A stretch of 63,888 nucleotides of DNA, the filler included, from Sluysia triapertura (Eukaryota), in the NCBI GenBank assembly GCA_046118255.1. It is 5 parts of 5 records of this genome, joined end to end, with 100 filler letters (N's around TTAATTAATTAA, not from the genome) between each part and the next. Parts side by side here need not be neighbours in the genome. Positions count along the whole stretch, not along the records: positions 11,210 to 22,744 come from JBJNIA010183601.1; 4 more parts are not named here. One strand, given 5' to 3'. How positions within the stretch are numbered: the first letter of the stretch is position 1; the number at the start of each line of letters is the position of its first letter. The notes beneath the pieces are model-generated. The model was not told the DNA's origin. It saw only the letters and a list, made by a program, of their open reading frames with translations, and made no database searches. Below are positions 12,086-57,817 of the stretch, in pieces. A program made the translations under genes and the position numbers.

Positions 12086-13870
12086 GTTAGTAGTAATATT
12101 AAATAATATAATTTAATTTTTCAGAAATATTTTTTTAAATATTAAATTTTTACGGAACATTTCGATTTATTTTAGCGATTAAATTGTTTTTAAATTTGGT
12201 TATTATTTTTATTTATCACTTTTAATGACTTTTATATAAATTATTTTCTGATTTTTAAATTATCGTCATAATTTAATTAATTAAAATAGTAAAAATAGTA
12301 TACCATCTTAACAGAGTAAAAATGCAAATAGCTACAAACACATTTAATTTTATTTAATTTTATTTAATTTACAAATAAAAAGATACTGTTGATTAAGAGA
12401 TTGTTTATGATGAAGAATTTTTCAAAAAATCAATAATTTTAAATTTAAATTCTAAATATTTTTCTAAAAGCGCACTAGTAGAAGAAGAAATAAGAGAGAA
12501 AGGAGAGAAAACAATTCAGAATTTCCAAAATAAATCATCCCAGACAATTCATCTATTATTATTTCTTCGTAATTATTATTATTATTGAGTGACTTTATTT
12601 CGGAATAAAAATATTAAGCAGCTTATTTGTATAATAGAACAATAAATGAAAATTTTAATAAATTATTATTATTATTTTAATTATATTATTATTATTAAAC
12701 AATATATAAAACCTAAAATTCATCTTTATTTTTTGACCAAATATATTACTTTTAATAAATGTAATTATGCGATGATTGATGAGTACTCTTCGATCTATTT
12801 TTATCATTGCTAATTGTTAAATCTGCACTTTTAATGATATATAATTCATATAAATTAATCTTGGGATAGGTTTAGCTTGAACATAATTTTCAGTGACCTG
12901 ATTGGTTGATTGATTATTTGGTTTTATTAAGGTATGAGTATTATTTTAAATTTGGAAATAATCCTCTTATTTTTCGTAAAACGAATGGATGAAAACATTT
13001 TACGAAAACGTTTAAAAAAGGATGATCTGGAATTTCATTATATCTATAAATTATATCTTAAAAAGGCATTTGATACGAATGAAACATCATAGTTTTTGAC
13101 ATTTGTATTTCATCTTTCATAAATGCATTGATCAGATTATCTAATTATGGGTTGCTCTAAAAAATGGGTTGTCTATTTTCGGACAATCAGAAAAATTGCC
13201 CATTCCAATTGTGTGCTTGCATACATACAATGAAAAATTTTGTGGATAGAAAAAATTTTTCATATTTAAACAGGGTGAAGAAATTATTTCATCATTTTGT
13301 CATATTTTAGCAAATATTAATTAATAATGCATTAATTAATTAATTCAATTTAAATTAATCCGTGGGAATCGAAATAGCATTGCACACAAATTAAACATTA
13401 TTTTTCAAATGTTAAATGCGGAGTTACGGGTATGATAAATATAATTTCATATCCAATCAGGATCCAGATAATGCAGAGTAAAATTCAAATGGACTAATCA
13501 ATTAAAATTTATATCTTCTTACACTGCTTGTGAAGTAATTAATTTTAGGGTATGAGCATTTGCAATGAAGATAAATGTGTAAATAATTAATTATTTTATA
13601 TCCGCGTTTCTTTAGATTTATTATAAACATGTTGTGATAAGTTAAGTTTAAAAATGAAATTAAATAATACTAGTGCAACGTACCAAATTGTAGGCCTAAA
13701 CTGTAGTAATAATTTTAATAAAATATATGAGCACCAAGATGGATATTGAAAGCAGGATTATCTGAAAACGAAAAAGAAGCCAATCAAATGATGCTGTTAA
13801 TAATTTATTCACTAAAATAGTTAAAGATAGAGAAATTACTGTGATTGTCACAACTCAAGATCTGCCTTGT

Positions 13871-15935
13871 TGTAGTTGGATATAGTTTAATACAAAGAAT
13901 GATTTTAATTTATATGAAAATAGGTTTTACAACTATATGTTATCTTGATTTTTAAAACTTTTATTCTTAGGTTAATATTCATAGAATTAAAAAGGAGAAT
14001 GAATTTAAAAGTTTATAAATAAAGAACGAAAATCTGTAAACACAAAAATTTTACTGAACATATAAAATTTAAAAATTCGAACATTTAGTAAAATCACTCT
14101 GTATGCGATACTGTCGATTAGCCACGCTTCGCTATCTAAAAAGAAAATAGAAGTTAAATTGTCTTTGGTGTAACAACAAAAAGTGATTACTTTAGCATAA
14201 TCAATATAACCAATGTTGTCGTATATTTCCGAAGTTGGTATTCCAATGCATTTAAGTAAATTCGTAAGTCGGGACAGATGATCTGTGTGACATGTATATT
14301 CGGATTTGTGATTCAATAACTGATTAACTGCGTTTGCATATACACAATTAACTCCAAATTTTGTGCATATACCATTTGTGTCATACTATATGGGCAAAGT
14401 GCTGTTCTAATACATTGATTTGAACTTTATGAATTATTGAAATAGTTCTGAGAAATTGAATTGACATTAACCGATGGAAGGTACATTAAATTCTTGAACG
14501 TATAGCTAAAATGACGATGTTTATAAGGATCAGTATAACGATATACAGAACGTATTTTCAAATCTTTTTTACATTTGTCTTTGTACTCGATGCTTAAGTG
14601 GGATGCATTAATTCGTAAAACTTTATTTGAAATTAAGTTTAGGCATGTATTGATCGTTCTTATCTTAAAAGGTTTGATAATATTTATGTTCAATACATTA
14701 TTTTCTTTAACTCGTATATCGGCCATGAGAATTCTTTTACATGGAACAGAGTAATCAAAACCTTACCAGCAACTATTGGCGCGAACTTTACACTTTGATT
14801 CAGAATCAATGACATCAACATGACTAATTATATTTACTCTTATTCGAAAACTCATACTTCCTTGAATTATTTCAAATTTATCTTTATTATTTTCAAGTAA
14901 TTCTGTACGAAATGGTATCATAAATTCATAAAATTTTCATTTGATCTATTCACTTTTAAAATCGAATAACATTGAGAAAATATACTGATATAGCTGTGAA
15001 TGCTTAATCTCGTTTTGTTGTCGAAACTGGTGGTGAGAGTTCTCAAATTACAAACTTCACGTTAATTATGTTGAATATATTTTCATAGCAATCTATAGGA
15101 GTAATAGTCTGCTCTAGATATTGATTAGTAAATTCTTTTGAAACATTAACATCGAACCTAGGATAAAGAACATGTAAATAAATGTTATAAATGAGAATTT
15201 CTTCAATTTTTTCTGGAATACTAATGCATAAGCTTTTCTGTCGTTCATGACTATAATGTTCTTGATCATTGTTACATGGATTTAATTAAAAACTTTCATT
15301 TGGTGAAGCGGTAATTTCCAACTCAGTTGTAGAAGTCATTATAATCATATTTATAGGTTTGATTGTCTGAGAAGTATGATCTAGAGTTGATACTCGTTTT
15401 AAGAAAGTTTTATCTATCATTAAATCTGGATAATCTATTGTCTTTAACGATGTGATTATAAATGAATCGAAAATTGTCATTTTTCGTTTTGTAAATACAA
15501 TACTAGTAGTCATCCAATTTATTTGTTAATTTTTTAAAACACAAATGTTATTTTTAATTATTTTAAAAGTATATTTTTTTGATCGAATTGCTATTATAAT
15601 TGTCAATCAGTCCTTTTCATATTATAATTGGCTGAGTGTATGATTCAGAAGCAACACTTAGGATGCAATAATAAATATTATTTTTATTATCAAAAGCAAC
15701 AATAGTAGTTACAAAATAATATACAAAATATAATCTTCAATATCACTTGTAATTGGCTGTCCAACCAGAAAACGATCACTCTGGTTGGACGAATATTAAT
15801 AACATTGAAATGAATAAAACTGACAGACAGGCCGCTATCAATGGTGACAATAATTTATACATAGTAACAAATAGTGTCACCATTGATAGTGGTAATTACT
15901 AGTTAGATTATAAAATTAAAATTAAAAATAATGAA

Positions 15936-15984
<49 letters not shown>

Positions 15985-16472
15985 TTATTATTGTTATAAA
16001 TGCATAAAATTTTCTTAATATTGTTAATATTTCTTGACATATTTGAATCTATTTAAAGTAGTTAAATGTCTTTAGATGTCTGAAGGTTAAATGTTATGAT
16101 GTTGAAAACTTACGATTTAAGTATTTTGAAATGATATAAATGTTTTGTGTGGATTTTTAAATATACATTGATGTTTTGACCGAAGGTAATGTTTGGATGT
16201 TAGAAGATTGTGATTTGCAAATATATTGAGAGTAGTTTAGTGTATGTGAATAAGATAGATTATAGACTGTGTTTTGGTACATTCTAATAGGTAAATATGT
16301 GATGTTAAAAAGATATGATTTTGAATATGTTAATATTTAACTATGTAAGAAAGTGTTTATAATGAATTTTAAAAAATGTGAATTGTGGAATTTGAAAGTA
16401 AATATGATTTTTATAGCATTGTAAAGAAAAATTTTAATAAGATTTGTAAAAAGTAATGGGTTGGCCACCACA
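13871..16472 (-). mobile_element. Family A copy 1 (2602 bp), TG...CA element with 5-bp TSD CTTGT
   Basis: CTTGT at 13866-13870 and 16473-16477 flanks TGTAGTTGG...GGTTGGCCACCACA. Twin hairpins at 15759-15892, (TAA)n, skewed segment. Confidence 0.85.
14005..15513 (-). pseudogene. Family A copy 1 cargo: ~500-codon intronless orphan ORF broken by stops and frameshifts
   Basis: Track ORFs 15286-15513, 14427-14726 and 14005-14316 link through readable intervening codons. Distant similarity to cargo 24074-25235. Confidence 0.6.
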
Positions 16473-17092
16473 CTTGTCAAGGTGGTAATTATCGTGTTTA
16501 ATATTTAAAATATTAGACTTTTAGCATTTCCACAAATCAAATTATTCCGAATAGATAGTTTTCATGGTGCAACAGAAATACTATATGGATACTTGCTGGA
16601 AGATTATGAAATATTTAAGAAAAAGGTAAAGTTCTTTCTGTTTCAGAAATATTATAGTAAATGATTTATTCTAAACGCTTTTGAGTACTTACTTTGCAGT
16701 AGATATGAGTGCAACATAAATTAATATTGAGGGAGATACTTAGAAAACTGTGATAAATGTGAATTTATTGATAACGTTTGTTATTTGTGCACAAACGAAC
16801 AATATGAACAAAAACATAAATCATTGGCTACAGGTTTATTATTAGTAGATTCGCAAACGGATAAATGTGTCGTATGTTTTATAAATAAGATTGAATAACT
16901 TGTTCAAAATATAGAAAGAAGCAATGAATTTAACTAGGTATGAACAATTTCAGTTAATAGAGATATTAGAGACGTGTAAGTTTTGTGATTGCAAATTAAG
17001 AATATGAAAGTAATTGTCTGTTATTTTTAAATTGTCACCATATTAGACTAAAACAAGAAAAATATGTTTTTATCTGGTTTTCTTAATATTAG

Positions 17093-17328: not shown

Positions 17329-18327
17329 TACAACAGTTTGTACATATTTTATTTGTAGTAAATTGTGTTATCACATTCTACATGAATAAAATTTCTGTAT
17401 GTTTTGGATTTCAGTATTTTTATCTATTATTTTACTTTCAGCAGAATTGTTTGGAGAAAGTAGTTATTTTCGAACATTTTATATTTTCCGTGACGTTTTT
17501 ATACACTTTTGATTAATAGTTTCATAGTATCCTTGAAGAATGTTTAATTTTATCACAAAAATGGTTTTTAGTCTAATAATGTGGCAACTACTATCTCTTT
17601 CTCTCAATTTATGATAAGCATTATTCAATTTATAAACTATTAAAACATTTATATTTCTAAAAGTGGACTTAAGGTCCTTAATCATGTAAATCGAACAAGA
17701 AAAACACACAAAGTCCTTAAATATTATTCGAATTGTCAAAATAACTATAATAAAACGAAAATAATAGATAAAATAACAATGTTCATTTGATTATTTAAGA
17801 AACCATGTACAACATAGGAAATGAAGCTTCGACAATCAGCGACGTTTTCGGCAACACAACATAGAGGTTTTGATATATTTTCCGAGGATTTTCTTGCTTA
17901 GTTAGCAATTCTTCGATACTATCAAATGCATTTATACTAAAGCTCAATAATTTAAATGACTCTAAATAAAACATAACCGTATCGTGTGCTCCAACTGATA
18001 TCATGAACCGTCCAAAAGTTTGTTTCATTAAAATACTAGTCTTTTCTTACAAAACAACACAAGAATATACTCTTTTAGTCCTTAATTCACGTAAATTCAA
18101 ATTTTAAATTTGAATTTGTGTTTCATTTTTAAAGGCAGTACTACTATCGACTTATTATGATTAATTAATTTAATGTTATACGATGTTCTTAGTATTGCAC
18201 GTGCGTTACATGTTTCACAATTGTTTTCAAATGTGCAACGGACTTTACATATTTTGCTCAATAACTCTTTGAAAAAAGAAACATGGAAATTCAGTAAGTA
18301 ATACACTTTGAGAACATTCATTATAAT

Positions 18328-20552
18328 TTTGGTAATGTTGTTTTTAATTGAATGTTTATGTTTAGGTTTTGATCTTGTTTTAAGAAATTCTCTAAGTTTA
18401 GAAAAAGATTATTCTTTAATTTATTTAATAAGTAGTTTAGATTATCTTTGACTGTTACTTCACAATTTGAAATGACTTTATGAAATACGTTAACTATAAA
18501 ATAACTATAAAATAACTTAACTATAAAATATTTATTTTAAAATTGACAATTTATATTTATAGTATATAGACGTTTACTTCTGCATAAATCCCTTAGAATA
18601 CAATTTGTTCCGCTATCTAAAGAAAATTTAGAAAAATGATCATTATTATTTAAAATTACATTAAATATTACTTTAATAGATTTTACATTAAGATCATTGA
18701 TTGAGACTTGTCGAGCCGCGGAGTTTATACTTTTATATAGTTCAATGATTTGGCTATCACTCATAGTATGTACATATTTACAGCTATTGCCATACTTTAA
18801 GCAAACCCCTGATTCGTTTGAAGTAAAAGGAGAAAAGGCGATGTCACTGTATTGATGAAAAAAGATATCAATTTTGTAATTTTTTTATGTTTATCGTCAA
18901 TGACATTGATTGGTTGAATTACTTTGAAATCTTTATTCTCTCTATTTACAAAAACTTGATCATAGTATTTGTCTTTGTTATGATCTAGGATTGAACTAAT
19001 AAACACTTTAATATTTTTAAATAAATTATTAAAATAAATATTTTTATAAAATTTTAAATAATAATTAAATGATAGTCTAACTAAAGTTTTATCATAATCT
19101 TGTTTATATGCTAGGTAACTCACCGATAGTTTCGTTACGTCTTTACGATCAGCTTGATAGTGTACGAAGCGGCTCGTAGGTAGTCTGACCAAAACTGTAT
19201 CATCTCGTTCATATGTTAAGTAACACATCGATAGTTGAATTACATTTTTATGATAGGTATGATAATGCACGTAACGACTCGTAAATAGTTCGATCGACTC
19301 ATTATCATTGTCTTGGTTATGCACTAAATAACTCAAAAATAGTTTAAGTGTATCTTTCGATTACGATGATTAAGTGCTAAATTGCTCAAGAATAGTTTAA
19401 TTAAGTCTTTACGATTAACTTGATCAAGTACTTAATAATTCAAAGATAATTTATTTACATCATCATGATTGTCTTTATGGAGTATTAAATAATTGAGAGA
19501 CAATTTATTTACGTGATTACGATTATCCTTGTCGATCAAGTCATACAGAATTTTGAAATTAGACACAATCCCAATTAATTCTGTTTATACAAATTACTTT
19601 TATGAAATGATTTTTAAATTTTTTTGTGTATAAAATTTTTATGACGTTCTTACCTATGTTTGGTCATCCAACCAGAATCGTTTACAAGAAAGCAGAGTGG
19701 TTATTAATCTGGTTGGATGGCCAATAGAGTAAATATTTTGTACTGAAAATTGATGAGCAAACCACTATCAGTGATGACGTTAATTAAATTGTATTTAGAT
19801 GAATTAGCCACTGATAGTTGTAGTTACTTATTTATGTTACATTTAATTAAATTATGTTTAAAATAATGATAATAATAATAATAATAACAACGAAGTGTTA
19901 TTATTATTAATCGAAAAATGCATGAATTTCTTTTTCTTTAGAATTCTAAACATGATCTGTCTTTTATTTTTCACCTTCTGAACATATTAGGCTTAAAAAG
20001 GAATTTGTAGTGTTACGGCTTAATGTCAAATGTAACGGTTAAGACTTCGAGGTGTGATAGTGACGCTGATGCTGTGGAATAATGTATAAGACTTTTTAGT
20101 GTAATTTCTTAATGCTATTTGTTTATGTCAATTGAAAATTCATTTAAGTGTAAAATATTTTGAAACGCAATGAGTGTTTGTGTGGAAGTTAGAATACTTT
20201 TTAATGTTTTTCATGGGGTAAAATTTCTGGTTAAATATATTATTAAATTATGAATTGTTAATATGTTATAAAGACGTCGTTCACGTATAAAAGAAGGTGA
20301 TTATAGACTGTTGAGAATATAGTTTAAATCGAATTGTTTAAGATGAAAAAGCTGCAAAATAAAATATTTTGGATTAGTTTTTAATGTACATTGATGCTTT
20401 AAGACGTTCTTGTGATTTGGATGTTGTGAGGTGTTGAATAAATATTTTTTGATGAATTACCTAATGTGAAATGATGGTATTATTTGTTATGAGATTTCAG
20501 TATGTTTGAATTTTAGTGAAAACTTTTTAAGCTTAGTGAGTTGGCCATCACA
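18328..20552 (-). mobile_element. Family A copy 2 (2225 bp) with 5-bp TSD ATAAT
   Basis: ATAAT at 18323-18327 and 20553-20557. The paralogous empty site has a single ATAAT (10042-10046). Ends TTTGGTAATG...GTTGGCCATCACA. Hairpins at 19660-19821. Confidence 0.88.
18537..19570 (-). pseudogene. Family A copy 2 cargo: orphan protein with ~9 tandem 18-aa repeats
   Basis: KLSLNYLILHKDNHDDVN / KLSLNY*VLDQVNRKDLI / KLFLSNLALNHRNRKDTL / KLFLSYLVHNQDNDNESI / ELFTSRYVHYHTYHKNVI and so on. One stop and frameshifts. Confidence 0.65.
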
Positions 20553-20733
20553 ATAATATTTTAAATTATCTTCCAAATTAAGCAAATTGTTGGATTTAAC
20601 TACATTATTTAACATACAATAAATATAATCAACAATCATCCACATTCTTTTATCTGCTTGAGGACAATTTTCAAAATTACTGATATCGCTAATAATGTTT
20701 TGAATTCCTCCAGAACCCTTCACAGATTGCATT

Positions 20734-20825
20734 CTGAGAAATGTTTCATCTCTGTCAACGTTAATCTGAGAAATGTTTCATCTCTAACAACGTTAATCTG
20801 AGAAATGTTTCATCTCTAACAACGT
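20734..20825. repeat. Three tandem copies of a 32-bp unit (ctgagaaatgtttcatctctaacaacgttaat)
   Basis: Directly visible. The paralog near 10192 has a single copy. Confidence 0.9.
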
Positions 20826-21650
20826 CGTAATATATTTTAAATCTATTTAAAACTTGCATAAGAAAACTCGTAATATTAGAAATTAAAGTCTCATTAGCTT
20901 TCATTGTGAATAATGTAACATGTGAGAAATACTCTCTATATTCGGCTATTTTTAAAATACGCAGAAATATAATAATAAAATTAAATTGTATAATTTTTGA
21001 ATACTAAAAACTAAAATTGAAAATAAATTATAATAAAAATAATAAATAAAAAGTAATAAAAATAATATTATAATTGTAATAAGGAAGTAATCACGCATTC
21101 AAACAAATTTTTAATTAATTCACAGTTTTTTTGATTAATATATAATTTTTAATTAAAACCTAATTTTTAATAGAAACGTTCATTTATTACGTAGAATTTG
21201 AAGTCCTGATTGTTCCATGCTTAAAATTGTCTTATCTTAAAATTATGTCTTGAAGGTTGGTATATAAGTGAAAAATAAAAAACGATGATAATGGCGATCA
21301 TGAGGACTCGTACAACAAAAAGCATAATATTAACATATTTGGTTATTACATTTTGATCTAATTGATTTGATTTTATTATAAGATTGTGGATTGAAGTTTT
21401 ATAATTCATGAATTGTGTTGAGTACAATGAATTAATAATGTGTGACGTTTATTGATAATTGTGTGTACAAATGCTGATAATTTTAGCGGTTAATAACTTA
21501 AATATATTTTATTATAGGATTTTTGTGTGGAGTATGTTGAAGTAGTGATATGTAGAAAATGTTTTTTATGCAAATTATGTATGACTTGAATTATGACTTG
21601 TACGAATTTATGTATGAGAACGAGACTGATATTATAGTGCGTGGTTGAAA

Positions 21651-21837
21651 CATGTGCCCCTCTGACAATATTCTAATAATTGTTTTCTACTCCATGAATT
21701 TGCTGTTTATTTTTTATTTTTACAAATACTTTTTAACATGCATACTGTTCGTTACAAATATAATTGTTTTTTAATGCCATAGGATCCCGATTTTAATATC
21801 TTGCAGAGGGCCCGTCAGAGGCTAGTTACGGTACATG
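21651..21837. mobile_element. Degenerate MITE, probably hAT-type
   Basis: Imperfect TIRs CATGTGCC..CCTCTGAC / GTCAGAGGCTAGTTACGGTACATG. No TSD seen. Confidence 0.4.
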
Positions 21838-22844: not shown

Positions 22845-23434
22845 TAACGTCTTAAACATTATTAATTTTGGCAGGTTCAGGATGCACAAAGTTGAGTTAG
22901 TATTTAGTGCGAATTAATTGAACAAAAATACAAGTAATGGTCAAGAATTGTATATTAATTCATTGTGGATGAATTAAGGTATCATTTGTGAATAAATTGT
23001 CAGAAAATTTTGAATAAATCGTCAAATAATTGTGATAAAAGATTGACAAAACTGTGAAATGAAAACTTGTCAAAATTATGGTAATACGTGTTGTGGTGGC
23101 CAACCTTTCAAATTTTATAAAAATTCACCTTTTTTTATAACATTACAAAATCATCAAATCAACACATAAAATCATACCCTTTAACATTTTAGCATTATCA
23201 CATTTATCTTCTCTAGGTTCACCAAAACAATTTATCTATTAAAGTCAATTATATCCACACTTACAGAACATATAAACCACAATAACACTCTAAATCATTA
23301 AACTACATTAAAAAAGTATCTAAAGTAAGGTACCTCTCATCACAGAACAACACGAGAATAATATTCCAAGGTATTTAGGCCCCAATCAACTACATTTCGA
23401 TAACATTTCAACTTGTAATGCTATTTTAACAATA

Positions 23435-23556
23435 CACCTATCCCCCGATTTACACGATACTTATTTTACACGTTTTCGTTTTACACGGTTTTCCAAATAA
23501 GTTTTTTTTACGTTTTTTTCAGGAACATATCTACCGTGCAAATTGGGGGATAGGTG
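23435..23556. mobile_element. 122-bp pogo/Tigger-like (Tc1-mariner) MITE nested in Family A copy 3
   Basis: TA TSD. TIRs CACCTATCCCCCGATTTACACG / CGTGCAAATTGGGGGATAGGTG. Confidence 0.88.
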
Positions 23557-24073
23557 TAATGAGGTGGCATTAGAACTTATGGGGTAATCATAAAATATCA
23601 TGTTCTTTCTTTGTCTAACTTTGAATATGTTGAGAAATTAAAGATTATCAAAGAAAGTTCATGTACAGATCTTTTTACAAGAATTTATGTATTTTAAATA
23701 TTTTATTTTCAATTAGTATTGATAATAATAACAATATTATTGTTATTATTGTTAATATTAACTTATTAACTTTATGCACTTTATAAATAAGTAACTACCA
23801 CCATCAATGCTGACATTACTGATTACTATACATGAATTCATGTCAACATTGATGGTGGCTCATCTTTCAATTATCTAGTTTGCAATCTTTAGTATTGGTC
23901 GCCAAATCAGTGTTATTCTGACCATTAATTTTATACGTTTCCTGGTTGGGCGGCCAATCAGGTTGATGCTTAGTACAAAATTTTGAGGTAAAAAAATTTT
24001 TCAAATATAATGTTCACAAAAATTTTATTAGCGTAATAGAATCAGAAACATTAAAATTTTATCCATATCAGTA

Positions 24074-25235
24074 ATGCTAAAGAAAATGGATTCGCAATAT
24101 GATGAAAGCTTTCAAGTTAATGATCTTACTAGTTTAACAAATTTAGAAATTTTTATATCTCAATTAGAAGTATTTCCTACCATTGATAATGATAGTTTAA
24201 CAGACAATGCTGATAATAAAATATATTATGTGAAATACCAAAACTTTGCTTCTAATATCAGTTTTTGCAAACTAATATGATACCTTAAGTAATAATGCGG
24301 AATTTATCCAAGATGATATCAATTATATGCCGAGCCAAACATTACTAATTAAAAAAGTTGGTCGTTAGAGTCAGAATTTGAACACGACTATGAATGGAAT
24401 ATGACAAAGTGGTTTCTTAAAGTGAAAAATACTATTATGGTACCAACAACCAATATATGTGTTTATGGTTATGATAACATGAAACAAATCCTGGATTCAT
24501 TATCGATTACTATAGCTAATATAAAATGTCAATATCTAACGGCAATAAAACATGGTTCAAAAAATTGGCCAGATTGTGATGGAATAATGATGGAGAATGT
24601 TTGCAAGATTACTTTTCAAAATGATATCAGGCATAGTTTCCAGCTAAATTTAAAATTCGTGATTATTCCAATGGAATGTACAATAGCGCTGAACTGAATC
24701 TAAAACAAATGCTCAATGCCGTTACAACTATTAAAGTAATTATTTGCCAATTGCCCAAGCAACATAGTGTACATGATAAACATTACAATAATCCAATCTA
24801 TTAGATGCATATAATCCAAACAGAACGATAATTTATTCAAAAGAAGCGAATAGAATTAAATACAACGCAAGATGCCGAAGACTCATGTCATAGGAATATT
24901 AGAAGAATCAAAGGTTTATCGATAAATCACAACAAGGACATTATGTTTACAAGAGTCAAGATTGTTGCCATCGAACACAAACTACATATTGTCGCAATAT
25001 AGAAAGGTATCTAATTGTTGATGCAGATAATGAGATCCTGTTTTGTAACGTAATTAATTCTTTTACTTATTCAACACATAATTTAATTTCTTATTTTATT
25101 TTAGACGTTGAATCACCGACTCAGTTACTTGGCATGTACATAAAAGAACCATTAAATTTAAAACTTTTTACTTTGTTTGATAATAATAAAATTTCGTTTG
25201 TCGATCATTTTCTAACTGTTTTGTATAATTTTTAG
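24074..25235 (+). pseudogene. Family A copy 3 cargo: ~385-codon orphan ORF, broken; distant homolog of 14005-15513
   Basis: C-terminus NVINSFTYSTHNLISYFILDVES...LNLKLF...FVDHFLTVLYNF* parallels KVITFCCYTKDNLTSIFFLDSEA...LNVRIF...FTDFRSLFINF*. Confidence 0.6.
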
Positions 25236-27604
25236 CTGTAAAACATTACAAAGAGTTTAATGTAAAACTTTAAAAGATTGTGTAGAAATTTTCAAATATT
25301 ATGAGATAACCAAAGTTTTCATTAATGTAAAGACGAAAAACAAAAAGAATAATCAACAATTAAACGTATGTACTCTTTTGTTACTGGCTAGTGAATAATT
25401 CAACTGACTATTTCGTTAATATGATATTCCTGAGTGCAAAAATCCAGGCTATAAAGCCTTATTATTATTATTATTATCAGTATTACTGTAGGATATTATT
25501 AAGTATTGGTATAACTATTATGTCCTGCTATATTAAAAGTCCACTATAAAAATAACGAATACTTGATTGATTAAGAATTTAAGAGATGAAATATTAAATA
25601 TTAGTCACCTTTTTAAAGAAAACGAGTTATCTCGTACTAAGCCAATATTTTTTTCCTGTTTGGAGATGAATTTTTTTAAAACCTATAAAATATTTGAAAT
25701 TAGACATTTGTAAGCTAGTGTTTAATAATTATAACATGAATTAAAAAGAAATTCATTAGTAGCTGTCCTTTTTATGTTTAAAAAGTATTGTTAGTCGAAC
25801 TTATTCTAATATTCATTATGCTAATAGAAATAAGTAAAGTTTCATAATTATAGTTTCAAGGTATACACTAAATGCATCACGACCGTTTTAGTTTTTACTT
25901 TAAAGGAAATTTTTTTACCGTTTTGTAATGTGACTGTTATATTTAATTGTATATATAGGTACCGGTCAAATGACCGGTGATGGTACGAATATGATTGTAT
26001 TTAACCGGATTCTTTATCCTTGGTAGTAATTTCGTCGAAACTTCTCTGTTTTATAGTTAGTAAATAGTTATATATACCTTATGTGATTTGTGCTTTAAAT
26101 CAAGATTCAAGAATCTAAATTATTATTAATGTAAACTTTCTGACTAATTTATTTTACAAATGATATCTATATTCTATATATTATATTTATCTTATCTGAA
26201 AGTGTGAATTCGAATACTCGTCTCAGTGCTTCTTTACTAAAGTATTCTTTTAAATCTTGTTAATGTTTTAAATATCTCTTAGTTAAATCCATATAATCGT
26301 GCTTTATTGGAATCAGATTTTATTTCTTATCGATTTAAAAATATTTATTTTTGTGACTCTATCACAAAGGAATTTTTATTTTATATATTCCACTGTTGTA
26401 TACTAGCTCAGTTTCAAATCCCTTTATTCAAAAAGACAACAAAATTACGCACGATTTATTTCAATAATGAAAATAATATAATATAAATGAAGCAAAAATG
26501 ATTAATTTACTTTATACATATAAAGAGATTTTAATTGCAATTTTATATTTATTTTTATTCAGGCAGAAAAATAAACAATTCTTACCACATATTGAATAAA
26601 TTTATTGTAATTAATTATATTAATAAATGTAGTTAAATAAAAATTTAAAAAAGTGAATTTTTTAAACCCTTTTATCAAAAAACCCTACTGTTAAGTAGTA
26701 AATAAGGCACAATTTAATATAAAGCTTTAAAAACTCGAGGGATAGCTTTTATACATCTAGTTTAATTCCATTTCTTATTTAGTTTAATAGATTTGAATCC
26801 TTTCGCAAAAATGTCTCTTTATATAATGGTTTTTCTAATACTAAATTACAGCCAATGATTTATTTGCATATATTCTATAACAATAGCTATATATTCAAAT
26901 TTTCCTTCAATTAATTTCGCCTCAGAGACATATTTTTCATATTACAGTGTACTTTTACTTATATGTATGTATGTACGCATTATTATTACTATTACTATTA
27001 TTATTATTATAGATTTGGATTGACATACATTTTTACACTTACCATTTATAAAGATTATTGTTAAAATTATGTATGAAATGATGTTATGAAAAACATAGTT
27101 ATTATTGCCAAATATTGGTTGTCTATATGTTACATTGATAGGAATATAATTTCGTTAATTTATTCTATTTATTAATGATGTTGTGTGCACACTGCCAGTG
27201 TTATTTTTGTGCACGCGAGCAAAATAAATTAATTAATGGGTTCGACTACAATGTATCTGTAACTGTGATGGTTATTTATTAATTATTTATCTTCAAACTC
27301 CTATTAACTTCAACTTAATTATCTTCAGTTAATCACAAGATGTAATCAAAAACTTCATCGATTAATATTTTTAACAAAATGATTCTTTACATTTAATACC
27401 CAACAATAAAAATAGCAAACAAGTACAACTTAAAAGAATAAATAAATTTCGATTTTACAAACTAAAGTTTTAGGCTTAGATTAAAAGATTTTAGCGCGTA
27501 TTAAATCGGGTAATGTGAAAATAATTGTAATAATAGCTTTTTTCTTATTACTTTACAAATATATAATTTATTATTTTTATAGTTTCACAACTTATACACT
27601 TACG

Positions 27605-32805: not shown

Positions 32806-33947
32806 TGTGTTGGGTTATACATATTTGTTGAGTTGTAAATTTAAATTGTAAATTTGTATTATTTTTAGTTAAATTTATATTATTTTTATGCAATATTATT
32901 TTTAAATGCTATAAATATTATAATTGTTTTCGCAATAAAATTATGAAAATATTTAAATACGCAAAATTCTTGTGTGTGATGCTTTTTAGAAATGTAATTC
33001 ACATGAGTAATTATAGTAATAAAATTTACCAAAGTTAAAAATTTTACTTATATTTTATTAAATATTTTTAAACTTTGAACTTATTAAACTGTATAAATTA
33101 ACGGAGAAAATTTGTTTTTCAAATAAACTGATAAGAGATAAATTGATAAACTGGTTTTTTCAAATGAATTGATAAAGAATGAAGTTAATTCTGATAAACT
33201 GTATATTTATTAAATTAAATCAAATGATCAAACTGAAAATTAAACTAAATTAACTCTAATCATGTTTTTTATCTGTACTTATGCGTTGTATTTATAATTG
33301 ATTTAGACATGCACTTTTAAGATGATAATAATATTTATCTATACTTTTATGTTAATATAATAATAGATATACTAGTCTGGATGGTTACTAATCAATAATA
33401 ATAATACTCTTTATTAATGCAATAATAATAATTAAAATATTAAAATACTAAACAACCATTTTTCTTATTATTTAACTTTTTCTAAAAATTTCTAAATTTA
33501 CGTGATTATCTACATGCTTAATTACATTAATTATAAATTTGCATAATTACAATATAACGTTTACATAATTATAATTTATATAATTTACATAATTATACAT
33601 TTGCATAATTTCATTTATTATACATTTACAATATTATGCGGTTGCAAACGGTGACGTAAATTTATAATTAGATTAATTGATTTATGATACCGTTTTCAGT
33701 ATGCGGTAGAAAAATCCTACTTAAATTACCACCTATTAAATTTTAATTATTAATTTTTATCATAATTTAACAAACAAATTTCAGAACATAATATTAGATA
33801 TTAGAATTATCATTGAAATAATAATTATAGATTACATCAACCTCCATTAACCATTCATATTGCTACTTACGACTTACCCCTTAAGTGTATAAGTCTAAGA
33901 TTACAGGGCACTCACGAATCTCACAAGCACAAGATATTGCATCCACA
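32806..33947 (+). mobile_element. Family C solo-LTR-like repeat (subfamily 2)
   Basis: 33680-33947 is the reverse complement of 55183-55420. TG...CA ends. No clear TSD. Confidence 0.55.
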
Positions 33948-34278: not shown

Positions 34279-34378
34279 NNNNNNNNNNNNNNNNNNNNNN
34301 NNNNNNNNNNNNNNNNNNNNNNTTAATTAATTAANNNNNNNNNNNNNNNNNNNNNNNNNNNNNNNNNNNNNNNNNNNN
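34279..34378. other. Artificial scaffold-joining spacer
   Basis: 44N-TTAATTAATTAA-44N. Confidence 0.97.
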
Positions 34379-34900
34379 GAGAATTAATCTTGCTGCTTGA
34401 TTAATTATTAATTGTAATTTTTTCACTTTTCTATCTGAAATTGAGTACAATAAACAATTGTTAAAATCTATGTTGCTACTTATCAATGAGTGAACAATAA
34501 GTTTAGCTGTTTCTTTGTTAAAAAATTTTCGAATATGTGATATTTTACTTAATTGATATTTACACTTTTTAACAATACAATTAATATTTTCTACCAATGT
34601 TCATTTTTGAATCCATATAACAACCTATATTTCGTACTATTTGCTTCGCTTCTAGTGTCTTTACTTCATTTATTTTGGTATTGTCGCTATTTTTATTACT
34701 GATGATTATAAATTCTGACTTTTCTTCATTGATTTTCAAGTATTTATTTTAAAACCATTTTATCAATTCAGATAGATAATAGTATTTTTTATGTTGTTCA
34801 TTTCAAATTCAGTATATATTTTTACGTCATCAGCATGTATGTGATATTTAAAACCATATGATTGGATTACACTAGAAACATCATTGATATATGTATTATA
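34379..34900 (-). mobile_element. L2/CR1-clade LINE ORF2 remnant (RT YADD region and C-terminal part)
   Basis: YGFKYHIHADDVKIY and IRKFFNKETAKLIVHSLISSNIDFNNCLL...KLQLIINQAARLI. More degenerate LINE sequence probably extends to about 35900. Confidence 0.85.
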
Positions 34901-37872
34901 AACAATAATGGAAAAGAAATTTAGAAAAGAAATTATATTCCATGTAAAGATTTTATTGAAAAATGCGTGAATTTATTCTGCAAAGAGAACAATTTTGCGA
35001 TTGTGACTATTGTTAAAATATTTGATCATTTTGAAGAAGTGGGAATTTATTATATTGATTGTTTTCTAATTCCTATGAATTCTATTATTACCAAAAAATA
35101 CTTAGATTTTTCAGGAACAAATTTCCTGTAATTAATATCTGGAAATCCTTTATTTCACTTTCATTTTTAAAATTGCCTTTGTTAAATCATCATTAAATTC
35201 GGAGGATTTTATATTTATTTTTTATAAATTATCGAAATTCGATTTATTCATTAAACATTGCCATATATAATTTGTATTTCATTATTTTCGTTTACAGAAT
35301 ACACCAGTAAATGCTGAAACATTTTATTTTAGTATTGTAAAATTGTAGATGAAATAAAATTACTTTCACAAGTATCATTAAATGATAAAACGTTTTCAAG
35401 TGAACATTTTCTTATTTTGAAAGCATCTTCTTAATGATCCTCCACAATGAATTATGAATTATTTTTGTTTTTACTAAGGTAACTTTAAACTTCCAAACTA
35501 TCACTATCAGACCACAAATGTTCATTCATTAGTCTAATTTATTTTCATATTCCAGACTACTTTTAACTTCATTAATATGAATTTAATGTTTTCATTAATA
35601 AACCGAGATCTTACACTGAAATATCTGCACTGACATTTTTAATTTTTGACGATGTTGGAAAACATCTTGATTACATATTTTCATTCACAATAATAATTTG
35701 TTTTTTATTTTCCACGTATTGATATAATCTTTTACAATATTTGAAAATTTCATAAGTGAATTCTTTCGTGTCCAAGTAAAGCCATAAAATTTACTTTGAA
35801 TCTATCTCATAATTTAACTTCGCTACTTCAGTTCTAGATTTTAAATATTCAAGATTTTTCATTAATTCATATTTCTCTTGGTCTTCGGCCCCTTTTCGGT
35901 ACATCTTAACATATCCACACTGGCCAAACTATTCGTCAGAGATACTATTTTGGAAAATGATATTTACAGTAGTACTTTTAGACATTACTTAAAATTAATT
36001 ATTAAAAATCTGTAATATCATTCTAATATCAAACTTTTACTTTTACTTAATATTGATAAAAATGATAATTAAGAGCTATGAAATCAATAAAATGAAAATT
36101 AAAAATGATAAATATAAAAATATGGAATGCTGGATTAAAGTGCTCGATCGTCAGGCTACTACTTAGTTTCTATATTTATTTCCTACTAATTTCCATCGTA
36201 ATATAATCTGATATATTGGTCTTCATTTAATAAAAATCTTAATAAAATTAATTTAATTAATATTTTAAGGGACAAGTTGCTTTGTGTAAAGGTTTGCTTC
36301 ACATACTTGAAACTCAAAATTTGCTAGATCATCATATATGCCCTCTAAAATCATTTTAAAATTAAAATTATTTAATATTAGACTAAACCTTTTAACACTT
36401 TAAATTAGATGTACAGTTTTAATATAAGTTGTAATGATTTCATTCCATTTATTTATATTTTACACATTTTTGTTAGAATAAAATTTAAGGTATTTATCTG
36501 TTGTATTATTGATCACTGTCGTATTTATAGCGGACTGTAAACGGACACATAACATTAAAATTTAAACATTAATCTTTAAAAGTAAAGAAGAAAAATTTCT
36601 TTAACACATATTACATTTTATTTTTTACGTTATCATACTTCTTACATGAAAAGTAACTTTTATAAATGTTACTTTAAAAGTTTTTTAATTTTTAATAAAA
36701 TTTATTTTATTAAAAATTTTAAAGCTTTTAAGTTTAGAAACTTTTTGATTCGATGATAATTTAAATGTGTTCAAACAATTGTACACGTATTCCTATACTC
36801 ATTTAGACACCTCTCACGTATGGTCAACGTTATTATATTATTATTACTATAACAATAATAATTATTATTATTATGTTAATTTTATTATTATTTTAATTTT
36901 CGACGCGAATAAATAGATAATAACCCAGTGTACAACTCATCTACATTGTTTATTTTTCAACTATGAATTTCTTAGTATTACTATTATTCAAACACAACAA
37001 TTAATTTTTTAAAATACCATCTAAAACATAAGATACATAAAATCAAACAAAAAAGCATTATTTATCTATTCAATTTTTAAAATCTACTGAGGATTAAAAA
37101 TCAATAAATAATTAAAAGATCATTTATCTTTTAAAATATAGTTAAGTATAGTTTTAAGTTTGATTTTATTTTTTATTTATTGGTAATTTCAATAAATAAA
37201 TTTTCAATATTTTAATATAAAACTTTAGATGTATTGAATGTGTAATTCTACTTAGATTAAATGAATTAATAAAATCAATAAGAAAATATCGAATATTATA
37301 TTAATTTTTAATAAAAATAAGTCAAAATTCATTCAACATTCATTATTATTCTAAATTTCACATTAAAAAATGCGAAAATTGCAGTAACTATTGAATCAGT
37401 AAACAAGAATGCTATTTCAGTTGAAATGGAGATCTCGTATAACACTAATTATTAATAAAATAGAGAGTCAGGTTTAAAATCATGATGGTAATTTCGGAAG
37501 TCCTGAATGCATTTTGGAATTAATTAAAATAAATATCTAGTAGGTTTTATCTATTTTAAATATTTTTTAAAATAGATATTGGAGCTACATAATTTAATTT
37601 AATTTATTATTATTATTATATTAAACTTGAAAAGTTACTTATAAAATGAAATAATTAAATAAAAATATTTTAAATAATAAAAATTAATAAAATAATTAAA
37701 AATTTTCCAAAATACTTTATAAATATTATGTATATTTTATATACTTTTTAAAAATTTTATACCCTATTAGAAGAAATATAATTTATGAATCACTTACATT
37801 AACTTATTTCAATATTTCGTCAAATCATGGAACAATTAAAAAAATAATTATAAGATATATTAATATATTAAT

Positions 37873-38200
37873 TTATATTGCACTCATATCTACTACAAAA
37901 TAAATACTCAAAAGTAAATCATTCACCATAATATTTCTGAAACAGAAATAATCTTCCAGTAATTTGGCATTCTCTTGTAACTGGTTATATATTTTTGAGA
38001 CATAAACGATATAAAACCTATCATCTATTTTATTATCACTGGGGATTTTGTATAGATTATTATGTCTCAATGAAATATTCATCTTGGTTTCCAATTCGGG
38101 ACTTCCATAAAGTCAGCATTTGTAAATTATTGTCATGTTTTTGAATTCTATTCTTGATTTTATTGGCAACCAATGTAATTCCTTAAGATAAAGTTTATTT
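37873..38200 (-). mobile_element. L2-clade LINE ORF2 3' end remnant
   Basis: LKELHWLPI.SRIEFK.MTIIYKC..YGSPE. Paralog at 41830-41995. Confidence 0.82.
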
Positions 38201-38210
38201 AAGATTTTAT

Positions 38211-52382: not shown

Positions 52383-52454
52383 CACATTATGAGCGGGGCG
52401 GGTATTATTACCAGTTTTATGTACTGTCACTTAAGAATACCCGCTCATAATGTG
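52383..52454. mobile_element. 72-bp piggyBac-type MITE, inverted twin of 50615-50686
   Basis: TTAA TSD. 71/72 identical to the reverse complement of the first copy. Confidence 0.92.
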
Positions 52455-55742: not shown

Positions 55743-56447
55743 TGTAGTGGCCAACCTTTTAACTTAAAAAAATTCAAAATAATTATCTCATATGTAATAT
55801 CACACTTACTCACATTATATGTCTTACTTTAGATTTATTAAAACCTCTTCGCATTTCAAAACATTTTAAATTCACAGCTTTATAACATTAAAATAATACT
55901 TACATTCAAACTATTAATGTACATTTTAAAATTCATTCAAAACATCTTAATTCATGATTTTACAACATCAGAATTACAAGTACTGATTAAACCATCAAAT
56001 ACACTTTAAAAATTAATCCAAAACAGTGCAGTTCACAATCCTTCAATACTCAATCATTAATATCATCGAAAAACATTAAAATCACAGTCACACCTTAAAC
56101 CATCGAACATAAATTTTAAAGTCAATCCAAAACATGTCAAGCTTGCAATATTTTTACATTCAGCCTCTAATGTCACCGATAAACATTATCTCAACACTTT
56201 TAAATCATTTTAGACTTTGCAATCAAATTTCTACCTTTTAATTAATTCCTCTAAACGGTCTTCTACTAACTCTTTCTATATGTTACATATTCTCAATAGA
56301 ATTCTATTTCACATTAGAAATTATTTCAATGAATTTTATTTATGTCAAGAAATATTTTTATTACTTATTATTAAAAGAACAATTTTGTTGAATAGAATTA
56401 AGATAGGTTTATGTGTTTTCTTTATTTTTCATCTTTATTATTACTAC

Positions 56448-56481
<34 letters not shown>

Positions 56482-57540
56482 TAATCTTCATATATTATTA
56501 TTATTATTAACATTAATTAACTCTATTTATACATTAAAAATATTATTTTATTATCATTATTATTATTTTTCATTATTAAGACCAGTATAACGGTCATTAT
56601 CATTTAATTAAATTTTCTATTTAATTATTCTACCCTGTTATCAGCCAACAGTTGATAAACTATTCAGCATGTCACGTTAACTGTCGACTGATGACAGTTA
56701 CTAAGTGTCATTGTGGTCAGTCATTTTATCTAAATATTTTTAGTAGTGTGACTATAATTTCATTGGTTGTCCAACCAAATCTACTATTAGTATCATTGTT
56801 TCTCGTTCTGGTTGGACAACCAGTGTATGTTGCTGTATACATTTAGTAAAAATTTGGCAAAAAACAAAAAAATTTATTATCAAAAATTTTTGTAGTACAT
56901 AGAAAATAAAGAAAAAGAACAAATAAATTATAATTGTTTCTACTTGAGATGCCTACGATAAAAGAAAACATCACAGAAATTATTAGATTAATTTTAGATC
57001 AACCACAAGATGTGTTAATTTATGTTAATGAAATTAGTAATGAAAGTGTACCAGAAGAAATTTTAGATTGTAATTTAGTTCTTTGGTCTAGATTCTTTAA
57101 GAAGTTTTCTGAACAGAATGACTGCCATGATTTTGAAGTTTGGTTGGAGTTATGTATTGACAAAACAATTAATATGGTACAATTTCCAATTCGTGTGGAT
57201 AGATTATTTTGTCGCATTTGATATGATCCTTTTATTGTGGAAATCAATGTAATTGAAAAAAGGCAATAAATATTCTTTTGTAAAATTTTTGAATAATGCC
57301 GTAATAATTACGTGAATCTTCAAATTTCTTATTATTTAAATAGTTATTGATCTCTCCTTGAATGTTGTTTTATTAAAATTTTAAATATTTTAATTTTTAA
57401 ATAAATTTTAATGTGACAATGTGATGATTTTCTAAATTTAATATTAAACTAATTTTAATAATAAATTAATTTTAATAACCATACATTATATATTCAGGGA
57501 AATCATATAAAATTCACAACCACACTTCATCACATAAGAA
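55743..57540 (+). mobile_element. Family A copy 4 (right end undefined)
   Basis: Starts TGTAGTGGCCAACC, then a C/A-skewed segment, (TTA)n, hairpins at 56635-56697 and 56761-56825, and a cargo ORF from 56949. Confidence 0.72.
56949..57360 (+). pseudogene. Family A copy 4 cargo: short orphan ORF remnant with no visible similarity to the other cargos
   Basis: MPTIKENITEIIRLILDQPQDV...RLFCRI*YDPFIVEINVIEKRQ*; reading continues through stops. Confidence 0.5.
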
Positions 57541-57817
57541 CATTTCTTACATACACAGAACATTAAATAAACTACTTGACTCATTGTTAATATAAATCCA
57601 ATCGTATTAAAATATATAATAATCATTACCATTGTTATATAATATGATTATCATGATTGTCATACAATAACTTTTATAACATTACAATATCATCAATATC
57701 ATCATATTAAAATATAACAATTATATCATGGTTATCATTATGATTTCTTTTTATTTTACGCTTCACCTTTCTTCTTCTTTTGTTGTATGAAATTGTTCGA
57801 GCAAGTGATTTACCAAA

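Follow-up and report, generated by a model that had tools for sequence, protein, structure and literature searches.

What kind of mobile DNA starts with an integrase-type terminus, carries hairpins and a gene of its own, and stands in the genome as a single unit? The question is raised by four insertions of mobile DNA, old and decayed, in the AT-rich genome of an animal, all within one window, the whole 63,888-nucleotide stretch of DNA analysed here (Table 1). As a preliminary description had proposed, the four copies lie on three scaffolds (delimited by N44-TTAATTAATTAA-N44 spacers) and have a common terminus, TGT(G/A)(G/A)TGGCCAAC; a window scan found its 13-bp form at 16460-16472(-), 20540-20552(-), 23092-23104(+) and 55743-55755(+) and nowhere else, against a chance expectation of 0.0008. 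All four share one layout, in which the TGT start leads into a homologous C/A-rich 5′ segment, then a TAA tract and hairpins, and last a reading frame that has decayed; the element is genuine. We favor, with moderate confidence, the reading that these copies are solo LTRs, 2.2-2.6 kb in length, from Ty3/gypsy-type or Bel/Pao subfamilies that have diverged deeply, each with an accessory gene in U3 comparable to MMTV sag.

Table 1. Coordinates of the four copies and their parts (positions in the window).
Feature	Position	Strand	Remark
Copy 1, complete, 2602 bp, TGTGGTGGCCAAC ... CCAACTACA	13871..16472	-	terminus and TSD; end is best-scoring among 3200 positions
Copy 1 TSD CTTGT	13866..13870, partner 16473-16477	+	exact; 5-mer frequency 0.0009
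Copy 1 terminus and C/A-rich 5′ segment	15990..16472	-	C/G 3.9
Copy 1 TAA/TTA tract	15923..15983	.	20 units
Copy 1 hairpin 1	15835..15889	-	15-bp stem; z -7.4
Copy 1 hairpin 2	15759..15790	-	z -4.0
Copy 1 decayed ORF	14005..15483	-	about 490 codons; 6 breaks
Copy 1 C-terminal module	14008-14385	-	with CCCH-like motif
Copy 1 putative poly(A) signal ATTAAA	13886..13891	-	15 nt from 3′ end
Copy 2, complete, 2225 bp, TGTGATGGCCAAC ... TTACCAAA	18328..20552	-	terminus, TSD, empty site
Copy 2 TSD ATAAT	18323..18327, partner 20553-20557	+	exact
Copy 2 paralogous empty target	10042..10046	+	single ATAAT, flanks contiguous
Copy 2 hairpin 1	19764..19818	-	z -3.9
Copy 2 hairpin 2	19665..19719	-	z -5.1
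Copy 2 decayed ORF	18537..19584	-	4 breaks; N-terminal 18-aa repeats
Copy 2 C-terminal module	18540-18884	-	with C-x6-C-x3-H
Copy 2 putative poly(A) signal ATTAAA	18343..18348	-	15 nt from 3′ end
Copy 3, provisional 3′ end	23092..25394	+	13-bp terminus
Copy 3 hairpin 1	23798..23858	+	z -6.3
Copy 3 hairpin 2	23894..23958	+	includes GGCCAATCAG; z -2.3
Copy 3 decayed ORF	24074..25235	+	6 breaks
Copy 3 C-terminal module	24903-25232	+	
Copy 4, provisional 3′ end	55743..57592	+	13-bp terminus; candidate ends include 57401, 57534 and 57592
Copy 4 TTA tract	56435..56578	.	
Copy 4 hairpin 2	56762..56824	+	z -6.4
Copy 4 short ORF	56949..57269	+	90 aa to first stop; 106 codons including one in-frame stop

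Both copies with defined ends are flanked by exact 5-bp target-site duplications (TSDs), confirming the CTTGT and ATAAT reported earlier, and copy 2 additionally has an empty paralogous site in the window; it had inserted into an ORF belonging to another repeat. A TSD is by itself no proof, because a blind scan of TGTRRT...AYYACA pairs found exact 5-bp TSDs at 6 of 1029 pairs, most probably by chance; copy 1 is supported by its TSD together with its terminus, and copy 2 by its empty site. Around the candidate ends of copies 3 and 4 no TSD was established. The far ends proposed for them, ~25364 and ~57540, could not be confirmed. Copy 3 would end at ~25364-25394 if its spacing is that of copies 1 and 2; the 4/5 TSD match at 25364 has a probability of about 0.27 over 40 positions. 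For copy 4 there are several equally good candidates. A MITE lies within copy 3 at 23435-23556. Of the TG...CA ends described previously, the TG start is present in all four copies and the CA end only in copy 1 (CTACA); copy 2 finishes in CCAAA, and the candidate end of copy 3, also not CA, finishes in AAA like copy 2. The footprint of a retroviral-type integrase is supported by the TGTNR start (4/4), 5-bp TSD (2/2 defined copies) and empty site, and a CA end is established for one of the four copies.

These ends can be set against those of known elements. The TGTNR start is the pattern of Gypsy LTR elements in PMC2836005, and in PMC3601003 LTR att sites have a short terminal inverted match and Sushi LTRs an AATAAA near the 3′ end. 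Like solo LTRs of Ty3/gypsy (Metaviridae) and Bel/Pao (PMC3601003), our copies begin with TGT(N)R, match only briefly and imperfectly at their two termini, have a short TSD and carry a putative poly(A) signal near the 3′ end, as in the Sushi clade; they differ from those LTRs in their 2.2-2.6 kb length and internal ORF of 100-490 codons; the term 'ORF' does not occur in the main text of that source. The terminus CCAACTACA of copy 1 resembles the LTR end consensus YNYAACA. Terminal inverted matches amount to 6/10, 10/20 and 20/45 positions in copy 1 and 4/10, 8/20 and 12/45 in copy 2, counts that leave both copies without long terminal inverted repeats (TIRs). Ginger1 and Ginger2/TDD share the TGTNR termini, the 5-bp TSD (TDD-4, TDD-5) and a size of 2.6-7 kb; as described in PMC2836005, they have 40-297 bp TIRs, an integrase-like transposase and mostly 4-bp TSDs, which the copies here lack. 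Within these groups the 5-bp TSD of copies 1 and 2 is compatible with TDD only, and we reject identity with Ginger/TDD on account of the missing TIR.

The putative poly(A) signal is weak as evidence because A(A/T)TAAA hexamers occur 10-17 times per copy. An mRNA-like unit with ATTAAA 15 nt from its end would also suit mRNA-like retroposons mobilised by LINEs (retrogenes or long SINE-like elements), in which the 3′ end is a poly(A) site and not an integrase site, and the AAA ends of copy 2 and candidate copy 3 fit such an origin, as does the presence in the window of LINE-like fragments (under the family label that we presume for them). LINE-driven insertions of such length are usually 5′-truncated, whereas an identical, exact 5′ TGT end is found in 4/4 copies. 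Both TSDs are moreover exactly 5 bp, no A-tail is present, and the 3′ ends are unlike two LINE-like tails in 6/6 comparisons (16-185 of 200 shuffles scored equally high), and we judge LINE mobilisation to be quite improbable.

Behind the terminus, the C/A skew noted in the preliminary description is borne out. C/G ratios of the four 5′ segments are 1.6-3.9, the four most C-skewed of 44 TGTRRTG sites are those headed by the four termini, and five of six pairs of segments are homologous at 0/100 shuffles (the sixth at 3/100), with 30-nt motifs recurring within the segment. The notion of a fixed cassette does not survive this comparison: identity between 5′ segments is 48-56%, and it is shape that is conserved, not sequence. 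The two hairpins behind the TAA tract are upheld by folding z-scores of -2.3 to -7.4 in 8/8 folds. In copy 4, the stems upstream of hairpin 2 (about 56648-56722) could not be aligned to hairpin 1 from copies 1-3. Hairpin 2 is 87.5% paired across four copies with three pairs altered on both sides, and hairpin 1 has two such pairs across three copies; with four sequences, hairpin covariation falls short of significance (18/500 and 70/500). Hairpin 2 also contains inverted CCAAT-like boxes.

These parts could alternatively be read on the other strand, as solo LTRs in the opposite orientation, with the ORF antisense in U3, the hairpins as palindromic bidirectional-promoter sites, AATAAA supplied by the TAA tract, and the C/A-rich segment as a long G/T-rich U5 ending in the conserved GTTGGCCACCACA. 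A G/T-rich U5 of 480-690 nt would far exceed the usual downstream element, and ATTAAA is equally placed behind the ORF in both complete copies, an objection softened by the need of the ORF's own mRNA for ATTAAA whichever way the LTR reads. TG...CA is symmetric, antisense ORFs have been reported in HML LTR consensus sequences, and an AATAA-rich tract followed by a G/T-rich stretch is the R-U5 order (PMC3601003, in part). On balance we consider the reversed orientation unlikely.

The preliminary description assigned each copy one running ORF. None of the four is intact, the frames of copies 1-4 needing 6, 4, 6 and 1 breaks, yet these numbers fall far below the shuffle means of 20.2, 15.8, 17.4 and 5.0 (0/200 shuffles each as low), and the antisense strand needs 22, 15, 18 and 2; the broken frame is thus shown to have been coding formerly. 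The 18-aa period of the copy 2 protein is real (z 7.2), and so is the distant homology reported for two cargoes, those of copies 1 and 3, whose C-terminal modules align at z 7.5 (0/300). Copies 1 and 2 align at z 4.1 (0/300; 3/300 with BLOSUM45). These are the best two of 172 pairs compared, copies 2 and 3 falling outside the best ten, and the shared module lies at a similar distance, 278 and 302 nt, from the element end. Judged by alignment, the module is common to copies 1 and 3 and probably also present in copy 2, whose repeat protein had been set apart from copy 1 and is probably related to it. The ORF of copy 4 has no detectable likeness to the other cargo and looks to be the sole unrelated one; a by-eye likeness to the N-terminal parts of copies 1 and 3 fell outside the best ten of the 172 pairs. 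Interchangeable cargo behind a fixed cassette, as first proposed, is thus overstated. Because three of four ORFs apparently share it and the non-coding part is equally diverged, vertical divergence of subfamilies with variable N-termini would explain most of the cargo variety.

The preliminary description had left two options, large solo LTRs with an accessory gene, which we favor, and a gene-cassette system, to which we give a minor share of probability. Under the latter each copy would be a stand-alone, non-autonomous cassette that serves no autonomous element as its LTR. It would form one transcription unit of 5′ segment, hairpins, ORF and poly(A) signal with integrase-type ends, which a retroviral-type integrase or Ginger/TDD-like transposase would mobilise in trans and whose payload could change. 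Mobile genes of this sort would be new. Four copies in 64 kb with no interior or paired repeat, and an unrelated short ORF in copy 4 behind the common start and hairpin 2, fit this proposal, and the 30-nt motifs could serve as subterminal binding sites. Three of four cargoes apparently belong to one family, however, and non-coding sequence diverged as much as the cargo is a misfit with recent swapping. The copies also lack TIRs (6/10, 4/10) against 40-297 bp in Ginger/TDD, and we know of no animal integrase substrate that is without both TIRs and LTRs. The window also contains a second repeat family, with a TGTAGTG start, a C/A-rich segment and a different orphan ORF, which would suit a cassette system, but its 5′ segment has no homology to that of the four copies (z 1.3 or less).

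A possible function of the shared protein is suggested by a weak CCCH-like signal. Pfam zf-CCCH_UNK matches the cargo of copies 1 and 2 below threshold (E 0.0018 and 0.057; 18.6 bits vs a cut-off of 31.1), C-x6-C-x3-H lies within one frame in copy 2, PDB CCCH proteins match at E 0.1-2.1 (best 0.099), the Atlas gives a CCCH lead (0.87) that is a lead only, and the cargo of copy 3 has no CCCH match in Pfam. These scores are not independent, because all lie below the cut-off and reflect one motif. The accessory gene of each LTR is accordingly a predicted RNA-binding one, and we tentatively propose, at less than even probability, that the protein of copies 1-3 was an RNA-binding regulator of the element's own RNA or acted against host silencing, a function read from sub-threshold matches in copies that are all decayed. 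An F-x-L-D motif, which we take to be like that of a Tudor domain, retropepsin or DEDD nuclease, led to no match for alignments A2/A5 against PDB (E up to 10) or A5 members against Pfam, where profiles of this type, built from only three decayed sequences, are a weak domain test; we set the Tudor and DEDD readings aside.

The same motifs bear on a further alternative, that the copies are internally deleted LTR elements, their LTR being the first 500-700 nt and their ORF representing gag and protease. Nucleocapsid followed by protease is the order of the zinc-finger-like and LDSG-like motifs here, and copy 2 reads F-S-L-D-S-G-T, which is retropepsin-site-like. DSG is, however, present in only one of three copies, neither Pfam nor PDB gave a protease or gag match with E as high as 10 allowed, no PBS-like CA-TGG ends the 5′ segment outside hairpin stems, and copies 1 and 2 have no second LTR ahead of the TSD. 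A gag-protease remnant is largely ruled out by TSD-bounded ends without a direct repeat, and we hold it to be very improbable.

Searches for an interior and for relatives agree with the earlier finding of no gag, RT, integrase, long TIR or paired LTR in the window. Pfam identified no gag, RT or integrase in 150 of the window's 214 stop-free stretches of at least 50 aa, comparison of cargo pieces with Pfam and PDB gave no integrase-like transposase (H2C2, DDE), no PBS or PPT was seen in the window, and neither a direct repeat of the opening 500 nt of copy 1 or copy 2 nor an LTR pair in the window was found. Positions 57380-57800 behind copy 4, inspected as a second LTR, score z 0.0 against copy 4's own 5′ segment; they match the 5′ segment of copy 3 over about 70 nt (z 9.2). 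The cargo had no homolog in protein, structure, viral or metagenome searches: a screen of 1337 candidates (270-861 aa) with the copy 1 frame, X standing for stops, yielded no homolog at E 0.01, 0/231 pattern matches in viral contigs and 0/591 in metagenome contigs were confirmed (0 for the hairpin-2 pattern), the Atlas gave no usable match to the copy 1 module, and Rfam had 0 matches within the window. P0001, the sole match of profile A2 in 1.84 billion representatives, is a tandem-repeat ORF without real likeness. Such blanks are weak evidence of novelty because the host is poorly covered, a host Rev1-like exon being likewise without a homolog. AlphaFold models reached pLDDT 33 (A2) and 40 (copy 2 module), and the Foldseek comparison suggested in the preliminary description returned nothing under E 5 for the pLDDT 33 model.

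On the solo-LTR reading, a full LTR-gag-pol-LTR element would have been inserted by its own integrase with a 5-bp TSD, and recombination between its LTRs would have removed the interior, leaving a single LTR flanked by the TSDs. If its orientation is that of the ORF, this LTR would begin with a long U3, comprising the C/A-rich segment with its 30-nt motifs, the TAA tract, two hairpins and the ORF; R/U5 would be very short, and ATTAAA would stand 15 nt before the LTR end. Expression of the ORF could start at an internal U3 promoter (the CCAAT-like boxes of hairpin 2) or come from the 3′ end of the element RNA, giving in copies 1-3 a protein whose N-terminal part varies (in copy 2 it consists of 18-aa repeats) and whose shared C-terminal module is CCCH-like; each copy would represent a separate, deeply diverged subfamily. 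This reading is supported by the TGTNR start in 4/4 copies, the 5-bp TSD in 2/2, the empty paralogous site, the position of ATTAAA, the coding past and the shared module. Against it, no interior is seen, four solo LTRs in 64 kb demand a high solo-to-full ratio, and the ends of copy 2 and candidate copy 3 are not CA.

TRIMs are non-autonomous LTR derivatives with integrase-type ends. LARDs are likewise non-autonomous, with integrase-type ends and an ability to carry foreign DNA (PMC6431247, in part), to which our copies are alike. Both bear two terminal direct repeats, whereas in copies 1 and 2 the opening 500 nt do not recur within the element, and we reject TRIM/LARD identity on this ground. 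ORFs within retroviral LTRs include sag, nef and those of BFV and HML. The copies resemble MMTV sag in having a long ORF within the LTR at the U3 position and differ in their AT-rich host of invertebrate type, a length roughly double that of the MMTV LTR (1300 nt), and about 0.9-1.2 kb of skewed segment and hairpins ahead of the ORF; no sequence likeness was found. Among giant Ty3/gypsy elements, Ogre (LTRs of 1.9-6.5 kb) and Burro similarly combine very long LTRs with accessory ORFs or domains of unknown or regulatory function, whereas in the available text of PMC6431247 their extra ORFs are internal and not in the LTR. In bdelloid LTR elements, too, accessory ORFs differ among families of one clade and many partial copies are solo LTRs; ORF3 there is a third ORF beside gag/pol with known folds (env, GDSL, DEDDy), as described in PMC5408684, unlike the ORF here, which lies inside the unit bounded by TSDs and matches no known fold.

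Vertebrate retroviruses offer documented cases of accessory genes within LTRs, and the open literature, searched without Repbase, Dfam and subscription journals, yielded no gene of several hundred codons inside an invertebrate retrotransposon LTR. LTR recombination is the host's usual means of disarming such elements. If the solo-LTR reading is true, a transcription unit is present in full in each solo LTR of this clade, and LTR recombination would therefore leave the accessory gene behind. A bolder version, which we think improbable, is an animal retroelement clade in which the terminal repeat by itself makes up a gene cassette of promoter, RNA hairpins, CCCH-finger RNA-binding protein on a swappable N-terminus and poly(A) signal; it would remain functional after loss of the remainder and might spread alone as a single-repeat unit integrated in trans, its product being a trans-activator or a decoy for small-RNA silencing in the germline. 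That four subfamilies near saturation have kept their layout indicates that the design is old and selected and that the proteins form a new orphan family.

The terminus TGT(G/A)(G/A)TGGCCAAC occurs four times in the window, on scaffolds 2, 2, 3 and 5, where 0.0008 matches are expected by chance, and a terminus search placed all four where the preliminary description had put them. Each heads one copy of family A, a set of four decayed insertions, and among 44 TGTRRTG sites these four open the stretches with the strongest C skew. The C/A-rich 5′ segments are only 48–56% identical column by column and are homologous against dinucleotide shuffles (z 12.4 for copies 2 and 4, 5.9 for 2 and 3, 5.8 for 1 and 4), with weaker pairs at z 3.5 (3 and 4), 2.9 (1 and 3) and 2.8 (1 and 2). 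Within them lies a 30-nt motif, with as many as three occurrences in copy 4 and a single background match over 120,562 positions. Beyond them come a TAA/TTA tract and then two hairpins whose folds reach z −2.3 to −7.4 in 8 of 8 cases. Pairing of hairpin 2 over the four copies is 87.5%, versus 14–49% when partners are slid; three of its pairs are altered on both sides, which with four sequences is not significant by shuffling (18/500, 70/500). For hairpin 1, copies 1–3 show two such pairs, and that of copy 4 does not align to the others. Profiles of the hairpin block and 5′ segment found no fifth copy in the window.

Insertion is the one demonstrated step of the proposed mechanism. The repeat hosting copy 2 has a paralogue at 9313–10978 (72–82% identical) with contiguous flanks and one ATAAT at 10042–10046, and copy 2 was therefore truly inserted, with 5 bp duplicated. 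The ends of copies 1 and 2 each rank first of 3200 positions by a combined score of target duplication, ACA and poly(A) hexamer; ATTAAA lies 15 nt before the end in both, such hexamers being common here. The candidate end of copy 3 at 25364 rests on a 4/5 duplication match, a level with P about 0.27 over 40 positions, which leaves that end unfixed, as do two top-scoring candidates and several more for copy 4. Exact 5-bp duplications, as first described, were recovered for copy 1 (CTTGT) and copy 2 (ATAAT, with its single-ATAAT paralogous site); TG...CA at both ends applies to copy 1 of the four and fails for copy 2, the ends of copies 3 and 4 not being fixed. Two known classes were rejected: Ginger/TDD needs long TIRs, of which family A has none, and TRIM/LARD needs two direct repeats, which were likewise absent, with no second copy of the first 500 nt found in copies 1 and 2.

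Features of the window, by position and strand
Feature	Position	Strand	Observation
Copy 1	16472 to 13871	−	Ends CCAACTACA; CTTGT at both flanks
Copy 2	20552 to 18328	−	Ends TTACCAAA; ATAAT at flanks; inside second family
Copy 3	from 23092	+	
Copy 4	from 55743	+	
MITE	23435–23556		In copy 3 5′ segment; CACCTATCCCC inverted ends, TA duplication; presumably Tc1/mariner-like
Segment match	~57670–57745	+	About 70 nt match copy 3 5′ segment (z 9.2), not copy 4's
Second family	9240–10983	−	TGTAGTG start at 10983, where homology between paralogues stops
Second family, paralogue	17479–21652	−	
75-bp hairpin repeat	3057–3134, 46760–46833, 48610–48682		Shares TGGCCAAC and CCAAC...GTTGG with family A
Orphan ORF pair	1790–3136	−	Consecutive, 178 and 262 aa, behind 75-bp hairpin repeat; first with hydrophobic start
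Orphan ORF	5443–6084	−	Intronless, 183–213 aa; no Pfam match
LINE-like 3′ fragments	34331–34825, 37865–38226, 41816–42426, 16632–16727		Related; presumably L2/CR1-like; no Pfam match in scanned pieces
87-bp element	50606–50692, 52377–52463		Inverted copies, 97.7% identical; 18-bp perfect stem; probably a young MITE
MARF1-like fragment	53966–54878	−	Intronless, truncated; RRM start and LOTUS (Pfam E 3e-8)
Small inverted-repeat element	~54318–54395		8-bp duplication; splits MARF1-like fragment
Repeat	55230–55418, 33686–33913		First copy upstream of MARF1-like fragment
Dynein heavy chain fragment	~57790–58760	+	C-terminal, intronless; stops and frameshifts; immediately follows copy 4

None of the four copies retains an intact cargo ORF. 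Read-through of copies 1–4 requires 6, 4, 6 and 1 breaks on the sense strand (shuffle means 20.2, 15.8, 17.4 and 5.0; as few in 0/200 shuffles each) and 22, 15, 18 and 2 on the antisense strand; because the sense counts fall far below shuffles, the ORFs are decayed genes and not chance frames. Among 172 piece pairs, the best joined copies 1 and 3 by their C-terminal pieces (z 7.5, 0/300), the second joined copies 1 and 2 by theirs (z 4.1, 0/300; 3/300 with BLOSUM45) and the third was an upstream stretch collinear between copies 1 and 2 (z 2.6, 7/300); copies 2 and 3 paired outside the top ten, and the 90–106 codons of copy 4 matched no compared piece. A shared V-I...S-x-F-x-L-D motif lies 278 nt (copy 1) and 302 nt (copy 2) from the 3′ end, a spacing by which copy 3 would end near 25370–25394. 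The N-terminal part of copy 2 has an 18-aa period (z 7.2 and 4.3), with none above z 2.5 in the other copies. Judged by sequence, three of the cargoes resemble members of a single old family whose N-termini vary, copy 4's alone being different, and the interchangeable cargo initially proposed is overstated.

The cargo protein is an orphan in all searches made: no homolog appeared by word search, by profile against 1.84 billion representatives (where the only hit was a spurious repeat ORF), in viral and metagenome contigs, for copy 1 in Atlas, or by profile against the PDB. Both AlphaFold models were of unusable quality. The sole recurring lead is a CCCH-type finger where the C-terminal module begins, with below-threshold signals from Pfam zf-CCCH_UNK (E 0.0018 for copy 2, 0.057 for copy 1), PDB CCCH proteins (E 0.099, 1.2 and 2.1, among unrelated matches of like score) and Atlas neighbours at ≤0.87, mostly zf-CCCH-bearing, all resting on one motif. 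It is conceivable, if doubtful, that the predicted protein would be RNA-binding, with the element's own hairpins or components of the host silencing machinery as its targets. The F-x-L-D motif, which we take to resemble retropepsin, Tudor and DEDD sites, found support for none of them in profile searches. Descent of the ORF from a gag-protease remnant is very improbable.

The five scaffolds, joined by N44-TTAATTAATTAA-N44 spacers, have 20–30% GC in most 1-kb bins. Pfam finds pieces of dynein heavy chain, bestrophin, a discoidin-domain receptor, a WH2 protein and an IMS-family (Rev1-like) polymerase, and the host is therefore an animal; no homolog of the IMS-family exon was found in the protein collections, which thus cover this host poorly.

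Family A is real, old and mobile. A single unit between target duplications, whose att-like ends are short and unequal and which has a poly(A) signal close to one of them, has the look of a solo LTR; from this we infer long LTRs that hold a gene in U3. We cautiously favor the reading that LTR–LTR recombination would have left these units behind, each from another subfamily and each holding its own promoter region, ORF and poly(A) signal, with the promoter proposed at inverted, presumably CCAAT-like boxes of hairpin 2. Counting against this solo-LTR reading are the end of copy 2, which lacks CA, and the absence of gag, RT and integrase from the 150 of 214 stop-free stretches scanned. The second family, of like layout and without homology to family A, is also listed against it, and either model can absorb this. 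Movement in trans of a stand-alone cassette is an unlikely alternative origin. Still less probable are the LTR in the opposite orientation, its ORF then antisense, and a terminal repeat that would spread on its own as a self-sufficient cassette encoding an RNA-binding regulator. A LINE-driven retroposon is more improbable again, as the 3′ ends of family A do not match the LINE-like tails. The available text of published sources gives a TGTNR start, together with a duplication of constant 5-bp length, as the mark of retroviral-type integrases (PMC2836005, PMC3601003), and describes ORFs within LTRs of MMTV, lentiviruses, bovine foamy virus and HML groups (PMC2664473), multi-kilobase LTRs in Ogre (PMC6431247) and family-specific accessory ORFs in bdelloid elements (PMC5408684). 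In the open literature, repeat databases and closed journals aside, we found no comparable LTR-borne gene reported for an invertebrate retrotransposon. By analogy, family A may be likened in its working to a sag-type LTR, with Metaviridae and Belpaoviridae as candidate placements.

In the second family, TGTAGTG is followed by a C/A-rich segment, a T-rich tract and a decayed orphan ORF of ~300 codons; an exact AACAT pair bounds 10222–10983, perhaps by chance, or perhaps because this is a 762-bp LTR with a TGGTATC motif behind it. The MARF1-like fragment, 46% identical to P0002 (a protein with RRM and LOTUS), is preceded by an unrelated N-terminus bearing Cys and His and by a C-rich segment, and is possibly a captured piece of a host gene presumed to act in RNA silencing. 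The dynein fragment is a pseudogene or a captured piece, with copy 4 as its possible owner.
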